From IMG/VR virus record IMGVR_UViG_642918906_000001, positions 192,001 to 256,000 of that record: a stretch of DNA of 64,000 nucleotides; one strand, given 5' to 3'. Positions within the stretch are counted from its first letter, which is position 1. Each line of letters begins with the position of its first letter. Below the pieces are notes generated by a model. That model had not been told where the DNA came from, did not search any database, and saw nothing but the letters and a program-made list of their open reading frames with translations. Positions 375-21,830 of the stretch are shown here, in pieces. A program made the position numbers and the translations under genes. Source of the stretch: a virus. Its lineage: Duplodnaviria > Caudoviricetes.

Positions 375-1238
375 TCAACGCAACCAGTTAGGCTTACGAA
401 TACCTTTAGCACGATCCCAGCCCAGTGTAGTGATCAGCTCACTTACGTCGTGGGTAGCAGATTCAAGACCCAGGCCAGTACGGCGCCTGGCTTCGTCCTG
501 CATGCGCCACAGTGTATCTGGCGTAATGACCCGTTCTGGTTTGCATTCAGCCTCAGTGAAGCCCTCAAGAGCTGGAGAACTGTATTTGTTGGCAGTAAAG
601 ATACCGCCTTCACCTACGAAGTCCCAAGTCGAGATTTCACGAGTATACTTAACACCACGATACGGATCATCTTGAGTGATGGAACGCACGGAGCAATAAG
701 TGTTAATGCTTGGGTTATCGAGTGAGTCTTTAAAGACCTGTGCAAAAGGACCGTATGGCTTAGCCTCAGCTACAACCATAGTTACAGCCTTACCTTCTTC
801 ATTGCGACCTGGCATCAGAGTCAGGTTACGAATGTGTGCACATACCCGGTTGTCATCAATCTGACGAATACGAGTGAGATACTCAGTATCAGACATTGGC
901 TTACGAACTACACGACCATCGATCAAAAGATCAGTGAACGGTTCAGGGTGTTTGAATTCCATGAACAGAACGCCTTTCTTCAACCGACGCATCAATGAGC
1001 TATTAGGCTCGAACATCGCTCGACCAGAAGCTTCATCGTAGAACATACCAGCTGAGTTGTTAGTGCCATAGCTACCAACAACCAGCGTGTAGTATCCATC
1101 AGCCGAAGCTGGTAAGATACCACGTTTATTAGTGCCAGCCAACATAGCGCAGCCTACGGTAACCGCTGCGTTAGAGGTTGGAACCTGACCCATGGGATTA
1201 GGGACTGTACGCCCCACAACAACACCACTCAGATTCAT
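375..1238 (-). CDS. prohead (head maturation) serine protease, phiKZ gp175-like
   Basis: EFKHPE (catalytic His), CSVRS (catalytic Ser) and TWDFV motifs; C-terminal ALE/GLE self-cleavage-type sites; synteny with vRNAP genes. ATG at 1238 chosen because the upstream gene ends at 1252. Confidence 0.85.
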   Translation of the reverse strand: MNLSGVVVGRTVPNPMGQVPTSNAAVTVGCAMLAGTNKRGILPASADGYYTLVVGSYGTNNSAGMFYDEASGRAMFEPNSSLMRRLKKGVLFMEFKHPEPFTDLLIDGRVVRKPMSDTEYLTRIRQIDDNRVCAHIRNLTLMPGRNEEGKAVTMVVAEAKPYGPFAQVFKDSLDNPSINTYCSVRSITQDDPYRGVKYTREISTWDFVGEGGIFTANKYSSPALEGFTEAECKPERVITPDTLWRMQDEARRRTGLGLESATHDVSELITTLGWDRAKGIRKPNWLR

Positions 1239-1251
1239 AAGAACATTCCGA

Positions 1252-1971
1252 TTAAGTACGGAGCAATTCCTCGATGAGTTCAACTGTTTCACTAGGGTTA
1301 ACCAGTGCAGAGTTGATACCCTCGGTGTAATATGCGCCGTTGAGTTTAGAAGTCGTATCGGAGGTGTTCCAAATAACAGATCGGAATGGTACTGTAACTG
1401 GAGGTTTAGTCAGTACGTCTTCCGGCCTTGCTAGGATGTGCCGATACAGCCGATTCATATCATCGGGATCTCGAGCGATAGTAGAGATAATTAATTCAAT
1501 TACCGACCGGCCACCCAAGTTAACTCCAGCGTGTTCTTCAGCTGTGTCGAACATGTTTGCAATGTCGAAATAGTTCATGTACCAAGGGATATTACCCTTA
1601 GCGATAAACTGGTCGTACATGTAGTAAGTCAGGGTGTCAGTCACAACCAGTGCAGTCGTATAGATAACTGTGTCACCTGCCTCAAATTGGAATTCGATAT
1701 AAGGTTCGTCTTTTATGACTACCTTTTCGGTAGAGCTAGGAGAGATCCGCATCATAGCGATTGTCTTGTTTACAGCGTATCGGTCACCCATGATGATCGG
1801 GAAGAAACCGAAAATAAAAACCTCACTGCCAATGACAGCGAGGTTCTTAGCGGTAAAGGACTCAGGGATCTGAATCCGACAAGGTTCGCTACAGACTACC
1901 GATCCAGACTCCGTTCGATGCAAACGTGCTTTGACGTATTCAGCATCTCGTTTGAGTTGGAAGATATCCAT
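1252..1971 (-). CDS. virion RNA polymerase beta' C-terminal subunit (phiKZ gp176-like)
   Basis: C-terminal 'ELIISTIARD...TTSKLNGAYYTEGINSAL' resembles the beta' C-terminus; lies next to the protease as in phiKZ-like phages. Confidence 0.65.
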   Translation of the reverse strand: MDIFQLKRDAEYVKARLHRTESGSVVCSEPCRIQIPESFTAKNLAVIGSEVFIFGFFPIIMGDRYAVNKTIAMMRISPSSTEKVVIKDEPYIEFQFEAGDTVIYTTALVVTDTLTYYMYDQFIAKGNIPWYMNYFDIANMFDTAEEHAGVNLGGRSVIELIISTIARDPDDMNRLYRHILARPEDVLTKPPVTVPFRSVIWNTSDTTSKLNGAYYTEGINSALVNPSETVELIEELLRT

Positions 1972-4256: not shown

Positions 4257-4457
4257 TCAGTTGTAAGCTTTGAATTTAAGAATGCGACCAATCACACTGG
4301 CCTTGATATCGTTAGCTGTGATGTACTCGCCTTCGATGGTATTAGCTGCGGAGTCAGAACCCATGGTACGAGCGATTGCCTCGTATGCCAATTCAGCTGC
4401 GGCGGTCAGAACAGCTAAGTTCTGACCATGTACTACGTTGTTACTTTGCTTTTGCAT
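4257..4457 (-). CDS. small hypothetical protein in vRNAP operon
   Basis: 66 aa, coupled to the beta gene end, GAGGA RBS. Confidence 0.65.
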   Translation of the reverse strand: MQKQSNNVVHGQNLAVLTAAAELAYEAIARTMGSDSAANTIEGEYITANDIKASVIGRILKFKAYN

Positions 4458-5580
4458 TTACAGTTCCTCGATAAACACCAGCTACCCGTTTAGAGAGAGC
4501 TTTCAAAAGAATGCTGGTCGTTGCGATTAGTTTAGGAGACATTACCATCCGTTCTTCCACAGAGGTGTTGCCGAAGATGATGTCAATTGGAGTGCCGTCT
4601 TCCAGAGTGTTAGTGCCAGTCATCACACGAGAGATAACAGTCTTCATCTGGTTACACAGTACAGCTTTGTCACCTGTACCGAATGGGATATCATGGTCGA
4701 TGTAAATACGAATAACCATGCTATCTGGTTCCAAGATCTGACCTTTAATACGGAAGGAGGAATCAACCTCACCCGAATAAGCATTACGTCCAGTTTGCTG
4801 AGCAATCTCTGCACGTGCTTTGTCTGAGGCTTCTGCGAGTTCACGCAGGTTATCAGACATGTCTTCGATGTCACCATGATAGAAACATTCGATCTTAGAA
4901 ACCGTACCTACGACCTTAGCAGTAGGGGTAGAAGACGACAGTCGTTTGAGCGTCTCAATAGAGGCATCATCAAACAGCGAGCCTGCGGCCGTTTCGGGGT
5001 CTTCAATAATACACAATATTGAACTGAGATCCAGATGGTCACCCGGCTGAACCAATTCAGATACGTGCTGATCAAACCGAACGATAACGTTCTTCACGTC
5101 AGTGGTCTGTGTATTAAGCTTCTTAGCAATAGACTCAGAAACTACCGATCCGTCTTCCAGAGTGTCCAAGTTGTCATCAAACGCAACTACACCGATTACC
5201 CCAGGCATCAGAGAAACCTGATCTGGATTGTAACGGTCTTCTTTGAAATATTTCCGGTTGTATGTAATTGTGTCACCACGTTTAAATTTGTCACCTTTCT
5301 TAAACTTGGTAACCAATTCGTGTGGATACACAACACCCGCAGCTGAACCGTGAATCGTGCCAAGGGGCATTGATTCAACTTCACCATCGGCGTACTGTAC
5401 AGTAATACCGTGTTTGTCCAACGCAACTACTTGACCATCTTGCTCTGCTGCTGTAGCAAAGATACTCGATGTACGTTGACCTACGACCTGTTCGTAACCT
5501 GTACGTACAGGCGAAAGATCGTAACCGTCAGCATACAGACCTTGTTGTTGCTGAATCGAAGCAAAGCCGATCCGCTTCAT
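4441..5580 (-). CDS. virion RNA polymerase beta subunit, exon 2
   Basis: MKRIGFASIQQQQG (equivalent to the ANRALMGxNMQRQA motif), VRTGYE, LEDGSVVSE, GDK..NQMK and DGTPIDIIF beta motifs. Confidence 0.9.
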   Translation of the reverse strand: MKRIGFASIQQQQGLYADGYDLSPVRTGYEQVVGQRTSSIFATAAEQDGQVVALDKHGITVQYADGEVESMPLGTIHGSAAGVVYPHELVTKFKKGDKFKRGDTITYNRKYFKEDRYNPDQVSLMPGVIGVVAFDDNLDTLEDGSVVSESIAKKLNTQTTDVKNVIVRFDQHVSELVQPGDHLDLSSILCIIEDPETAAGSLFDDASIETLKRLSSSTPTAKVVGTVSKIECFYHGDIEDMSDNLRELAEASDKARAEIAQQTGRNAYSGEVDSSFRIKGQILEPDSMVIRIYIDHDIPFGTGDKAVLCNQMKTVISRVMTGTNTLEDGTPIDIIFGNTSVEERMVMSPKLIATTSILLKALSKRVAGVYRGTVNAKAK

Positions 5581-5916
5581 CGTGATATTCAGTATGAGTC
5601 GTTAATTCATACCCGCGCCATTACGCGCAGCTGCATGTCGCCATGCAGACTAGACTATATCTTCATCTCAGTGAGATGCTCCCCATTTCCACCCACTTGG
5701 GTGTACACCGTGATAAGCGGTTAGTCGTTGAACGTTCCTTACATTTCTGTAAGGCTTCGCTGCTGATTGTCTCAGAGAGATATCCCAGCAATTAAAGGAG
5801 ATTCCATCTAGGTATCGCTACCTAGTGGGACTGTATCTATTAAATCTTTGTATTGGATAAACCAAGTTGTCGACCACACTCAATGTAGCGTAGACTTTAC
5901 AAACATTCAATACACA
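5581..5916 (-). mobile_element. group I self-splicing intron (IA2-like, no homing endonuclease ORF), 336 nt
   Basis: Minus-strand P AATTGCTGGGA (5783-5793), Q AATCAGCAG (5760-5768), R GTTCAACGACTA (5722-5733), S AAGATATAGTCT (5652-5663); GCGA-capped P2 and P9 hairpins; 5' exon ends in U, intron ends in G; removal restores in-frame HDD|MKR. Confidence 0.92.
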
Positions 5917-8900
5917 ATCATCGTGGGCAATACCAACACCCAGCAATGCAGAAGTCGAAAGCAGTTTAGACTTACCATCTTTAGATGGGTCATACAAACG
6001 GGTCAAACCACGCATCGATGTGAAGTTAGCATCTGGCGTCATGTAAGCAATAATACCTACGTCACCAGAGTCAACAGTCGACTCAGATACAACACCCAAA
6101 TCAGACTCACCATAAATACGAGTACGAGCAACCATCGATACCGCTGCACGCCCACCATCACCACGATAGGTCATGGCTTCTTGTTCACGCAGGTTAGCGA
6201 TTGGGTTGGAGTCTTCAATCGTCGCTACAGTCGGGTCGTTGAGTTTAGTCCATACTTCATGACGATCCAGAATCACCTTGACATCAGTGGAACCTTCACG
6301 TGCATTGTAACGCTTGATGGCCTTAGACAACGAACTGAAGATCTGACCTGCAATACGTTCGTAACCACGATAGCGCATGTACTGACCATCTACTTCACCC
6401 GGAGACCAATCTTCCATCAACAGTTCAACCGATCTGAACAGCAGACCTTGGAAGTCTGTCGGTTCACCCATCTCTATCAGCATACCTTCAGTGATCGGAT
6501 CAACGAATGCCTCAAACAGGAAATCGATTTCACGAATGAAACGGTTACCCATGTCTTGTTCGATCAGCACACGGTGATACACATCCTTCTTATCGAAGTC
6601 ATAACGAGAGTAATTACGCAGCACTTTGTGATAACGACGCAGACCACCTAAGACCAACATCGAACGATAATCATCGCGTGGGAACACAAGGATCTCATCG
6701 TTGAATGCCAATGTGTAATCGTCGCCAGTCACCACGATACTCTTACCACGTGAATGCGCTTGGTAGCTAACGCCCAACAGATCCAGCAAGTTAGTCAACC
6801 CGAGTTGATAGCCCAATACAAAACCAATTGGGATGTCCTTACCCGAGATCTTAACGTCAACAGCTTCCAGTGGAGCTTTAGCAGCGTTGATACCAGTCAT
6901 GTCCAACAGCGTACCCATTGGTTCCAACTCGTTACCTTCTTTAAGATAGAAGATACCAGCTTTATCCAACAGAATAGCATGTCCTTCACGAACACCTACC
7001 ATTACGTATCCATCACGTTCATTGAACTCTGGATCGATGTTGAACTTTTCCTTAAAGTACTTAGCTCGATTAGGGTAGTTGAAGTAAAGGTGATTGGCAC
7101 CGTTGTCAATACTAGCGAACTTACCGGCCATGGCCGAGTAAACACGTGGTAGGTGATATTCAGACAGATCCAACTCAATGTATTTCTGGTTGGTCACAAT
7201 CGGGTTAGTAGCATCCCGAGCTTTCGTATCGATCTGACGAGTTAACCAAACATCAAAAGCATGCTCTGCACGAGGTGAACGCATAACGAATGTTTTATTG
7301 GTATAGCTAGTCAGCGCAACCCGAGTAGGAGATACTTTACGGATTGGAATATCTGCCCGCTGAACGCGTTGACGATACGTTACGCCGTTACTGAGGAAAC
7401 GACCATCTTTATCGATAACAGGAATTGTAAAGTTAAGTTGTGAAGCCATACCACGAACCGGCTTAACTGTAACCGTGAAGGTTTGAGTGTGGTTCATAGC
7501 GTCTTCGTTTTCTTGAATCTTGATATCTGTTACAGCCACGCCTTGACGTTGAATCGCCATGATCGATTGCAAGATATCTTTTGGTAACAGAGTCTTGATG
7601 TACTTACGCATCATCGACTTGTGTACCGAACGCAACATGGATTTATCCATGATGGTTGTTTTATCAGGGAACTCGTGAGCAGGTACCTCGAAGTCTTCCT
7701 TGGCGTATTGCATGGCTTCTTTAACAGTCAGACCACTACCAAATGGATCAGGCATTTCTTCATAACGCTGGGCGTCATCAATAGCCATCTCGAATGTACG
7801 TTCAGAGATCATACCCACTTTAGCCAGACGGAATGCACGCTTTGCTACACCATCCAACATCTTATCGCCAGTAGTGAACTCTTGGTCAATAATCGTAGCT
7901 GGACGAGCCTGTTCCACCTTGAGGGTCTTAGCTGCGACCCCACTGAGTTCATCGTTTTCGATGTTAAGCGTAGTACGTTCAAGATCCAGCTCTGGTGGTG
8001 GCTCAAAAGTAACCTGCAAAATATCCAGATCGAACGACCGGTATACTTTACTGAGAGGTGGCGTTACCACCTCAGGTTCTTCGATATCGAGGTCAACACT
8101 GACTTGCTTAGCTTTGATCTCTACCGGTTCTTCCTCTTCAGAGAACTCTTCTTCGTCTTCATTAACGACGATTACTGGCTCATCAGATTCTTCAGCTTCG
8201 GCTTCGATCATGGCATTGGCTTGAACGTTAGCATCGTTCTCGATCAGTTGATCGTTACCAGCAGCATACTCAACCAGAGTAGTCATCAAACTAACAAAGC
8301 GGCGCTGAATCAACTCAGGTTTGAAGTAAGCTTCCATGCCGAATTCATCGACATAGGTTTCAAAGCCGTATGTCAATCGTTCGCTAATACCCATATCAGA
8401 GAGGTTACGTTTCTCTTCATAGGTCTCATAGTTACCGTCGGCATCTTGATAAGTCTCAAAAGTAACTGCATCTTCCAGTAGCTTGAGTTTATCCGCTTCT
8501 TTCTCTTCTTCGGTCTGTTCACGCCATTCGTCCAGCTTACCCAAGTTGATAACAAAGAAGCTACCTTGAACTCGGATAAAGAAGTTGATCTGCGGGAAGT
8601 ATTTCTTATCGACTTTAGAGACAAACGAAGTCTTACGATCTGGACCCAAGAATCGATACAGATCAAACAGATCCATCAATTCACCTGTACGGAAAGTCTC
8701 CAACAGGTTTTGAGTTTGAGACGTTTCGAACATCTTGAACTGAGCCATAGTCGGCATCGATTCAGGAACATGCAGCTCGATGAAATGGTTCCACGTTGGG
8801 AACCGAGTGCAGGCATCTTGTACCCCATCCCAGAAAGTAGCCGTGTCGTTCACCCAACGATAGTAGTTAGCTTTATAGCTAGCGATGTATCGATACAGTG

Positions 8901-9279
8901 GATTCAGCAGGTTGTAGTTAAACAACGCTACGTTCTGTTGGTTCAGTTTAACCGATTCATCACGACGCAGTGGTTTGAAGAAACGATTCTGTCTACGGAA
9001 GTCATTAATCAAAGTAGGTGGTAACACCGAAGTACGCTTTGGGTTACCTACTTCAGACTTAAGTTCGGTGATCTGTTCAAGGAACACCTTACCTTTAAGT
9101 TTGGCAATGATTGGATCTACTTGCGATGGACCTAAGACGGCTTGGTTATCCGCATGAAAGTGATACACTGTTTCCATAGGGAAATCGAATTTACCAATCG
9201 CGTGCAGACGCGGAGACTGAAGCTCCGCTGCCTGACGTAGACCAAAGCTTCTTAAAAACTGGTCAATTTTTAAACGCAT
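5917..9279 (-). CDS. virion RNA polymerase beta subunit (phiKZ gp178-like), exon 1
   Basis: IPVIDKDGRFLSNG, SNPIANL, GVVSESTVDSGDVG and LLSTSALL...HDD beta motifs; long acidic N-terminal insertion. Confidence 0.9.
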
Positions 9280-20071: not shown

Positions 20072-20145
20072 AAATTACTGGGGTGGTAGATTCTACAGAG
20101 GATCTACCGTCCCCTTAACTTTTATTCCCCATCGAGGATGCAATA

Positions 20146-20634
20146 ATGTTTAAACAGTTTATCTTGTGGTTGGTAACTAAGTTACTGACCCCGCGTGATC
20201 GCCTGCAACTTGTAGTGGATGATGGCTTCCTGGCCAACCCTCGTCGCACTATTGACAACCTTTACCATGTGGCCCACTCTAATAAACACGGTGTAAAATT
20301 CGAATCATTTGACCGTGTATCGGCAAAGCGGCTATCTGAATTCGATATCTCTGGGTCTGTCTATATAGCCGTACTGTTTGCCTTACATGACAAACTTATT
20401 GCATGCACTGGCGGCAGTTGTTTTGAAGAGGAGGTTCGCAACTTCTTCCATAAAGTGAACACTATTAAAGGTCATGGTAACCGTCTGAAGGTTAGTAAAG
20501 ATCTTTTCGAGTTGGTACGCAAAGAGACCCTGTTTGCCAACGAGCAAGATATTAATCTGGTAGCGCATGTATTGCAGCACCAGTACATCGACACTGAAGC
20601 AACTACTAAATTCCTCACTAACACTGGAGTGTAA
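20146..20634 (+). CDS. hypothetical protein
   Basis: GAGGA RBS, 162 aa. Confidence 0.7.
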   Translation: MFKQFILWLVTKLLTPRDRLQLVVDDGFLANPRRTIDNLYHVAHSNKHGVKFESFDRVSAKRLSEFDISGSVYIAVLFALHDKLIACTGGSCFEEEVRNFFHKVNTIKGHGNRLKVSKDLFELVRKETLFANEQDINLVAHVLQHQYIDTEATTKFLTNTGV

Positions 20635-20637
20635 CCC

Positions 20638-21162
20638 ATGAGCCTTATCCAATCGATTGCCAAAACTATCTACACCACCTTCGTTCCTGAGAACGTGCGT
20701 CAAGAAGAAGCTACAGCTATTCTGTCCGATAACAACCGTGCTAGTATGGCGTTGTCTTACATCGGTAAAGAAGCGGCTACGCTCGATCACAGCTCGCAGG
20801 AATACAAACGTGCCTTGGGTGCAGCTGAAGCTCTGGTACTACTGCACAACCGTGCGTCTAGCTTTACTCAGATGTGCCGTAGTATGGTACGCCGTACTTC
20901 CACAGATTCGTACTACGTTACTGCTGTTCTGGGTAACCTGGTTTATAAAACTGAATCGTTGGCATCTGGTCAAACCTCTACCCAAGGTGGTGAAGCTGAT
21001 AAACTGCTGAAAGCTATCGCCGTTGAAGTAGCTGCTGCGAAAGAAGAGAAGTCTTTCATCAAACGTCGTAGCATTATCCGCAATGCGGTTAAGCGTGAGC
21101 TCCCAACGATGACTGCTGACGACCTGAGTCTGGCCGTTGAATTGATCCTCAATAATGTGTAA
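20638..21162 (+). CDS. hypothetical protein
   Basis: GGAG RBS, 174 aa. Confidence 0.75.
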   Translation: MSLIQSIAKTIYTTFVPENVRQEEATAILSDNNRASMALSYIGKEAATLDHSSQEYKRALGAAEALVLLHNRASSFTQMCRSMVRRTSTDSYYVTAVLGNLVYKTESLASGQTSTQGGEADKLLKAIAVEVAAAKEEKSFIKRRSIIRNAVKRELPTMTADDLSLAVELILNNV

Positions 21163-21183
21163 TTCACTATAAAGGATTCTTTA

Positions 21184-21783
21184 ATGGAAAGTATTATCAC
21201 TGGCCTTACTTGGGCCAAAGGTCTTGAGTCCGCTGACGGCGTAGCTCAGGTAGTAGATGTAAAAGAAGCTAAGTCTCACATTGACATTGATGACGTCGAT
21301 CAAAACGATGTTAAAGATGAAGACACTGAGACCCTACCTAATACCGATGGTGGTGATGAAGTTAAGGTTGCTACTGACCATGACGTGGTCTCGGCTGAAT
21401 CGGCGACAGTAGTGTCTGGTGATGAAGGCGGTAAAGTGATCGAGGCCATGTCCGTCGATCCTATCTCTGGTGCAGCTAAGCGGTTTGTGATCTCGGGCTT
21501 TAATGCCCAGACTAACCCAGCTGCCGAGCCGGGTGATAACCTGCTGAGTCTGGTAATCCTGTTGCAGAACGGTATTATCCCAGAAGTAGGTGTTAACGGT
21601 GTTACATGTGAAGACCTTCTGAAAGTAGTCGAGGAAGTTTTCGTAAGCTTCCAAGAAGGTAAGTTCGCATGTGAAGAAAACGAGGAAGTCCTCCAAGGTG
21701 TACGTATGGCACAAGCAGCCATTACTAAACGCCTGCTTCGTCGTGAATCCCAAGGTACCGAAGGGACCTACAAAGGTAACTGA
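21184..21783 (+). CDS. Tad1-like (Thoeris/CBASS signal sponge family) protein with acidic N-terminal extension
   Basis: C-terminal LQNG...GVNGVTCEDLLKVV..VFVSFQEGKFACEEN..L......I.KR..RRE..GTEGT matches the Tad1 family pattern as recalled. Confidence 0.7.
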   Translation: MESIITGLTWAKGLESADGVAQVVDVKEAKSHIDIDDVDQNDVKDEDTETLPNTDGGDEVKVATDHDVVSAESATVVSGDEGGKVIEAMSVDPISGAAKRFVISGFNAQTNPAAEPGDNLLSLVILLQNGIIPEVGVNGVTCEDLLKVVEEVFVSFQEGKFACEENEEVLQGVRMAQAAITKRLLRRESQGTEGTYKGN

Positions 21784-21789
21784 CATAAC

Positions 21790-21809
21790 GCCCTTCCTTC
21801 GGGAAGGGC
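21790..21809 (+). terminator. intrinsic terminator
   Basis: GCCCTTCC-TTCG-GGAAGGGC followed by TTTATTT. Confidence 0.85.
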
Positions 21810-21830
21810 TTTATTTCGTAGTAGAAAATA

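Follow-up and report, generated by a model that had tools for sequence, protein, structure and literature searches.

The window analysed here, a 64,000-nucleotide stretch that spans bases 192001-256000 of a 316,674-base genome, carries at 21184..21783 a gene whose product ends in a domain of the Tad1 family. Approximately 125 C-terminal residues (aa 73-199) of this protein are a genuine Tad1 domain, a case that rests on sequence and fold together, and, judged by sequence and gene order, the gene is the syntenic ortholog of phiKZ gp184 in a phiKZ-like giant Pseudomonas phage. We consider it likely that the protein is packaged as a precursor and cut by a gp175-type protease, and that its injected Tad1 domain would bind an adenine-containing cyclic signal rather than cA3. 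This arrangement is already published for phiKZ gp184, and the window gene extends it to a second, widespread Pseudomonas jumbo-phage subgroup. What is new here is a subgroup without the phiKZ capsid wedge, together with predictions at the level of single residues.

The Tad1 gene, its locus and its homology

The gene, the elements that surround it and two head-gene orthologs in the same window are as follows:

21184..21783, + strand: coding sequence of 199 aa, phiKZ gp184 ortholog (ORF list, PHROGs, PDB sequences and tblastn)
21172..21176, + strand: AAGGA, resembling a ribosome-binding site, 7 nt 5' of the ATG (direct reading of the sequence)
21790..21819, + strand: terminator-like hairpin (21790-21809; 8 pairs, 6 of them G-C) with a T-rich tail, directly 3' of the stop of the Tad1 gene (consensus scan)
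20146..20634 and 20638..21162, + strand: ORFs of 162 and 174 aa that share the terminator-bracketed unit with the Tad1 gene
375..1292, - strand: ortholog of the phiKZ head protease gp175, the expected S/A/G-x-E cutter (tblastn, 56% over 268 aa, E 6e-94, window 378-1175)
1252..1971, - strand: ortholog of the phiKZ head protein gp176 (63% identity, tblastn)

The reading frame opens with an ATG at 21184, closes with a stop codon at 21781-21783 and holds 199 codons. According to the consensus scan, an upstream hairpin at 20080-20113 and the hairpin at 21790-21809 bracket a three-ORF unit at 20146..21783. The two ORFs in front of the Tad1 gene gave no match in PHROGs, NCBIfam or the PDB sequences, and none to phiKZ gp183; phage Viktualia has two similarly sized ORFs (163 and 173 aa) in the equivalent position. 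The local layout of Viktualia matches that of the window locus, and every gene there is annotated as hypothetical.

Conservation of gene order extends well beyond this unit. When phiKZ gp184 is compared with the whole genome by tblastn, it matches window positions 21421-21780, that is, the Tad1 domain, at 59% identity, and the counterparts of phiKZ gp174, 175, 176, 177, 178, 180, 182, 184, 186 and 188 are found by tblastn, with order and strands that match those in phiKZ. A profile search of the genome for a second Tad1 domain returned only the Tad1 gene itself (E 8.6e-61), the next best match having E 0.96. As a separate observation on this gene block, a group I intron, matched over the full length of the Rfam model RF00028 (87.4 bits, E 7.7e-23), lies at 5631..5851 on the - strand and interrupts the phiKZ gp178 ortholog, whose two ORFs, 5818..9279 and 4441..5580 (both - strand), match gp178 residues 1-1072 and 1074-1451, respectively. 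The phiKZ record lists gp178 as a structural head protein, and a passage of 10.1101/2025.11.23.690004 places it among the virion RNA polymerase genes.

The preliminary description had recognised a Tad1 residue pattern in the C-terminal part of the protein. All residues that it listed are present, at aa 128-195, but their spacing is off by one in three places; a strict regular expression for the pattern fails, and a form that tolerates one residue matches. That the homology itself is real and no chance pattern is borne out by phmmer and by a 19-member family profile. Specifically, phmmer against the PDB recovers the CmTad1 chain 8kbb_A ('Thoeris anti-defense 1') at E 4.7e-7 and CbTad1 chains at E about 0.02, and with the family profile E falls to 2.3e-16 for CmTad1 and to between 3.3e-15 and 5.2e-15 for CbTad1 (7uav_A 4.7e-15), in an alignment that spans CbTad1 chain positions 10-123 of 125. 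The best match among the PDB sequences is 8y6v_I, named 'gp184' (E 1e-43, aa 80-199 against 111-230). Three PHROGs families cover the protein to different extents: phrog_23843 matches its full length (E 2.3e-110), phrog_22140 matches aa 80-199, and phrog_2428, a profile of 131 positions, matches aa 96-197 (E 9.2e-20). Scans of the 199-aa protein against a local copy of Pfam and against NCBIfam returned no family. Because the homologs bear the label PF24729 (precomputed for 52 of the 57 found by a word-based protein search), which one source names the Acb2/Tad1 hairpin domain, the empty Pfam scan is treated as a library gap and not as evidence.

Additionally, tblastn against phage records yielded 145 matched records (72 Bacillus, 64 Pseudomonas and 9 others), 13 of which cover at least 80% of the query. 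The best of these come from Viktualia (75% identity), Phabio (56%), PA1C-type phages (52-54%) and PhiPA3 (49%), and in all of these closer relatives the protein is annotated as hypothetical; phiKZ-type phages match over aa 80-199 only, at 59% identity. Further afield, a search with aa 84-199 against 1.84 billion representatives found 1610 proteins at E<=0.001, of which 110 reach E<=1e-10. Among the 147 representatives listed (P0058-P0204), 70 do not exceed 150 aa, and the other 77 reach lengths of up to 591 aa. Many of these longer proteins end in a C-terminal Tad1 domain and have unrelated N-terminal parts, so that, by their sequences, N-terminal additions to Tad1 look common and diverse.

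The predicted fold points in the same direction. An AlphaFold2 model computed from a 19-sequence alignment (mean pLDDT 60, with 66-77 in the beta region and 84-93 in the helices) places three strands (75-79, 85-91 and 98-104) ahead of two helices (142-158 and 164-190), which is the Tad1 layout of an N-terminal sheet and two C-terminal helices. The Foldseek comparison that had been proposed as a check came out in favour of Tad1: all seven PDB matches at E<=0.001 are CmTad1 or CbTad1 chains, Tad1 extends down to listed rank 16, and the first non-Tad1 match has E 1.7. In VIA-align, the top eight entries are all Tad1 (rmsd 0.6-2.4 Å over 52-72 residues, 28-34% identity), with Z of 5.5-6.5, which, being below 8, is modest taken alone; the superposition places model residues 125-198 onto chain residues 50-124, mainly the loop and the helical hairpin. 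The chain 8y6v_I is missing from the Foldseek matches of the window model because only 34 of its residues are modelled, and these lie outside the Tad1 domain.

The N-terminal extension and probable head maturation

Two protease-type motifs, GLE-S at aa 13-16 and SAE-S at aa 70-73, divide the protein into three parts:

21184..21228, + strand: aa 1-15, N-terminal peptide of conserved pattern L-x-W-A-x-G/S-L-E, the end of which is the first S/G-x-E motif, predicted cut after E15
21229..21399, + strand: aa 16-72, acidic linker, predicted to be disordered, ending in SAE|S, predicted cut after E72
21400..21780, + strand: aa 73-199, Tad1 domain with beta strands at 75-104, a helical hairpin at 142-190 and a C-terminal G-T-E-G-T tail

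Both motifs had been pointed out in the preliminary description and are present, but the second predicted cut falls after E72 and not, as given there, after E73. The predicted products are aa 1-15, 16-72 and 73-199, and the last of them (127 aa, 13.5 kDa) is near the solved Tad1 chains in size (123-138 residues). The N-terminus is as acidic as had been claimed, with 22 D/E against 5 K/R over aa 1-83; the balance is 20 against 5 over aa 1-72 and 18 against 4 over aa 16-72, with a pI of 4.05 for each of these two segments. In the AlphaFold2 model, nearly all of aa 1-74 has pLDDT below 50, and a helix is predicted at aa 2-13 with low confidence.

The head protease of such phages reportedly follows an S/A/G-x-E consensus. 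Motifs of the form [SAG]xE start at positions 13, 57, 70, 79, 113, 162 and 191 of the 199-aa protein, and their number in the whole protein is not above chance (7 against a shuffle mean of 5.06, sd 1.89, a count that 21.5% of 5000 shuffles attain); within the first 83 aa there are 4 against a shuffle mean of 1.97, which 9.7% of shuffles attain. The positions of the two motifs tell more. In an alignment of 58 sequences, consisting of the window protein and 57 homologs, the motif at the GLE|S position (about 13) is in place in 55, with W10 kept in 53 and E15 in 57, and 51 of the 58 have an [SAG]xE motif no more than four residues from position 70. The exceptions are mainly phiKZ-type and the most distant sequences. 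In contrast to E15 and site 70, only 12 of the 58 retain E81, which belongs to the GDE motif. As the aligned sequences indicate, it is the positional conservation of the two protease-type motifs, and not their number, that exceeds chance. Mean identity of the 57 homologs to the window protein is 56% over aa 18-72 and 69% in the Tad1 domain; the segment 18-72 is therefore constrained and no free spacer. One close relative, P0045 (300 aa; 62% identity in the Tad1 domain), has roughly 100 additional residues inserted where the acidic extension meets the Tad1 domain, which again marks the linker region as modular.

The N-terminal peptide motif was also sought throughout the genome, in all 1123 ORFs that encode 60 aa or more, and was found in the Tad1 gene only, with two further loose matches deep inside unrelated ORFs. 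For a capsid-targeting tag common to other head proteins this search gives no evidence. Among distant Tad1-domain proteins, the phiKZ-family N-terminal motif occurs in 1 of the 77 that are longer than 150 aa and in none of the 70 shorter ones, and it is therefore specific to the close jumbo-phage family.

That the protein enters the head, is matured there and is injected had been suggested from the sequence, and the suggestion matches what is published for phiKZ gp184; for the window protein it would hold by orthology. In the relevant passages of PMC11297242, gp184 is a minor capsid protein inside the capsid that is cleaved by gp175. Below the vertex it fills a gap between gp86 and a subunit of the major capsid protein, and the cleavage product is longer than the part that was modelled. 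PMC10449902 describes gp184 as an inner-body interactor whose injection was validated by a FLAG-tag western assay. The bioRxiv text 10.1101/2025.11.23.690004, as excerpted, calls orf184 tad1 and describes it as tolerating transposon insertions and non-essential; it is stated there and in a section of the review PMC13282480 that the head protease releases the C-terminal part of gp184 and that this part is injected. The same bioRxiv text credits the Tad1 naming of gp184 to Li et al. 2024; the 2023 preprint of Li et al. (10.1101/2023.11.15.567273) makes no mention of phiKZ. According to a passage in PMC11724313, AntiDefenseFinder gives Tad1 as the sole known anti-defence gene in phiKZ.

These data bear on the idea that the protein is an unpackaged cytoplasmic Tad1 whose acidic tail serves solubility, regulation or mimicry. 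Such a protein would be in keeping with the absence of the phiKZ beta insert from the window protein, with the search of the genome's ORFs, which found the N-terminal motif in no other gene and hence no targeting tag held in common, and with the unrelated extensions of the 77 longer proteins among the 147 distant representatives listed. Against it, the N-terminal peptide and both protease-type motifs are conserved, the first of them in phiKZ-type sequences as well, and the gene stands in a block of virion genes, syntenic with a protein for which the passage in PMC10449902 shows injection. We regard an unpackaged protein as highly improbable, and packaging of a precursor remains the preferred reading.

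The window protein and gp184 have in common the peptide L-x-W-x-x-S/G-L-E-S, an acidic extension and S/A/G-x-E motifs, and both phages encode a gp175-type protease. The two proteins differ in length (199 aa against 230 aa) and in aa 18-72, where identity is only 22%, and the window protein is without a beta-rich insert. In phiKZ, this insert includes most of the gp184 residues that are resolved in the capsid. The chain of gp184 in PDB 8Y6V (chain I, 8y6v_I) has 34 modelled residues, 69-102, which align to residues 66-102 of a model of P0052, the phiKZ-type gp184 used for modelling, which has 9 differences from the AF399011 protein over 230 positions. Residues 69-102 lie N-terminal to the Tad1 domain of gp184 (111-230), and most of them belong to a beta-rich insertion that occurs only in phiKZ-type sequences (P0052-54, P0058, P0060, P0061). 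In the alignment of 19 sequences (A1), the window protein and its subgroup have a gap at this insert, so most of the capsid-bound beta segment is absent from them. On either side of this segment gp184 has AIE|E (57-60) and GHE|H (106-109), motifs whose positions fit the release of a Tad1 domain of about 122 residues.

A second idea gives the protein a chiefly structural role, as a minor capsid protein of the vertex-binding complex in which the Tad1 fold is kept for assembly and not for signal capture. The place of phiKZ gp184 in the gap between gp86 and the major capsid protein, as PMC11297242 presents it, and the position of the window gene among virion genes would both agree with this. The capsid-resolved residues, however, are outside the Tad1 domain and mostly in the insert that is absent here, orf184 of phiKZ tolerates transposon insertions according to the excerpted 10.1101/2025.11.23.690004, pocket residues without an obvious structural role are invariant in 98 family members, and the vertex complex of Goslar, in the portion of the Goslar preprint that describes it, contains no gp184 homolog. 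A chiefly structural protein is very unlikely in our judgement, and the pocket residues that speak against it also underlie the preferred reading of the protein as a packaged sponge.

Predicted ligand sites of the Tad1 domain

The ligand contacts of CbTad1 and CmTad1 were mapped onto the window protein by hand through the phmmer and profile alignments. Contact lists came from sections of the Tad1 discovery preprint and of the preprint by Li et al. (10.1101/2023.11.15.567273), and numbering offsets of +1 (7uav_A) and +10 (8kbb_A) are consistent with all residues named there and with the structural ranges from VIA-align. The mapping gives the following picture:

gcADPR/cyclic-dinucleotide pocket, kept from CbTad1 (7 of 11 contacts identical): F82 = F156, F87 = F161, N92 = N166, R109 = R183, R113 = R187, G55 = G130, G120 = G194
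same pocket, changed from CbTad1: H29 to K99, R57 to I132 (in a loop beside an indel), R78 to V152, N122 to Y196
cA3 site: none kept; CbTad1 R90 / CmTad1 R88 to E164, and T97 / T95 to Q171
CmTad1 hexamer interface (R88, T95, K96, Q98, E99, M102, W103, K106): 1 of 8 identical (K182)

The four CbTad1 residues F82, N92, R109 and R113, at which mutation abolishes binding according to the relevant part of 10.1101/2023.11.15.567273, all have their counterparts kept in the window protein. An alignment of 98 family members shows N166 and R183 without exception, R187 in 95 sequences, and either F or Y at position 156 in 96. In CbTad1 the ribose-ribose linkage is read by the side chains of H29, R78 and N122, as the Tad1 discovery preprint states in its structural part, and all three are replaced, by K99, V152 and Y196. 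Both substitutions singled out in the preliminary description fall at meaningful places: the change of DRL to EVF brings V152 to the position of CbTad1 R78, a ribose-linkage contact, and that of REN to EEN brings E164 to the position of CbTad1 R90, the cA3-site arginine.

Neither change is peculiar to the window protein. Of the 19 sequences in alignment A1, only the two most distant have R at position 152, and the other 17 have V, T, I, L or M there. At position 164, 53 of the 58 close homologs have E, Q or D, and no more than 7 of 74 relatives at greater distance have R; since R164 is rare among close and distant relatives, this feature of the cA3 site is not universal in this part of the family. 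The phiKZ-type gp184 likewise has E164 and has lost the counterpart of R78 (L), so that both replacements are common to it and the window protein. The solved proteins CbTad1 and CmTad1 (7UAV/7UAW/8SMD and 8KBB-8KBH) have the same domain, and CmTad1 also shares the C-terminal G-x-E-G-T tail. They differ from the window protein in having no N-terminal extension, in not being known to be packaged, and in having the cA3 pair (R90/T97; R88/T95) and the hexamer interface, where the window protein has E164/Q171.

The earlier caveat, that with these residues replaced the ligand might differ or binding be lost, is partly right as judged from the alignments: the linkage-specific contacts and the cA3 site are replaced, but the pocket retains its adenine and diphosphate core. 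The domain is predicted to bind an adenine-containing cyclic signal and to have lost canonical cA3 binding, and its interface residues make a dimer more probable than a hexamer.

Because the linkage-reading residues are replaced, the protein could instead be a packaged sponge for a signal other than 1''-2'/1''-3' gcADPR, such as another ADPR-derived Thoeris signal or certain cyclic dinucleotides. The loss of all three linkage readers, the scarcity of R at position 152 and the variation in binding spectra among Tad1 homologs that 10.1101/2023.11.15.567273 reports in the section concerned would all suit such a ligand. On the other hand, the adenine stack, the Hoogsteen reader and the diphosphate arginines show little or no variation, all 10 of 10 diverse homologs inhibited Thoeris in the experiments quoted from the Tad1 discovery preprint, and phiKZ gp184, with R78 replaced by L, is still cited as Tad1 in the passages available on it. 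We think a signal of this other kind unlikely. A broader form of the idea takes the Viktualia/Phabio/PhiPA3-type proteins as a distinct packaged sponge, which would enter the head by the N-terminal peptide alone, as with a T4-like tag clipped at GLE|S, without the phiKZ beta wedge, and whose pocket, which still grips adenine and diphosphate but lacks the linkage readers and the cA3 site, would therefore be tuned to a non-gcADPR signal, e.g. another TIR-made ADPR derivative of Pseudomonas Thoeris. This, too, seems doubtful to us, and we favour a sponge that has kept the canonical pocket.

Proposed delivery of the Tad1 domain with phage DNA

In the mechanism that we propose, the gene would encode a Tad1-family sponge for nucleotide immune signals as a precursor with an acidic N-terminal extension of about 72 residues. 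By analogy with phiKZ gp184, this precursor would enter the prohead, where a gp175-type head protease would cut it at the conserved S/G-x-E sites, after E15 and E72, and the freed Tad1 domain of about 127 residues would be delivered with the DNA into the next host and be present there before any phage gene expression. In the canonical pocket, where the two subunits of the dimer meet, the domain is predicted to bind gcADPR and/or cyclic dinucleotides, and it would not bind cA3 at the canonical trimer-of-dimers site. For the window protein, we infer packaging, cleavage, injection and binding by orthology. A precedent for the delivery part is IPI* of T4, an anti-defence protein with a short N-terminal capsid-targeting peptide that the prohead protease trims at x-x-E and that is injected with the DNA; the analogy concerns mechanism only, as fold, phage lineage and target (a restriction enzyme and not a signalling molecule) are unrelated.

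A counter-defence protein that is delivered ready-made with the DNA can blunt Thoeris/CBASS signalling before phage expression. The packaging extension appears to be modular, the phiKZ capsid wedge being dispensable in the subgroup to which the window protein belongs and the N-terminal peptide and protease-type sites being kept, and the biochemical prediction, that pocket binding would be kept and cA3 binding and the hexamer lost, extends to phiKZ gp184 itself.
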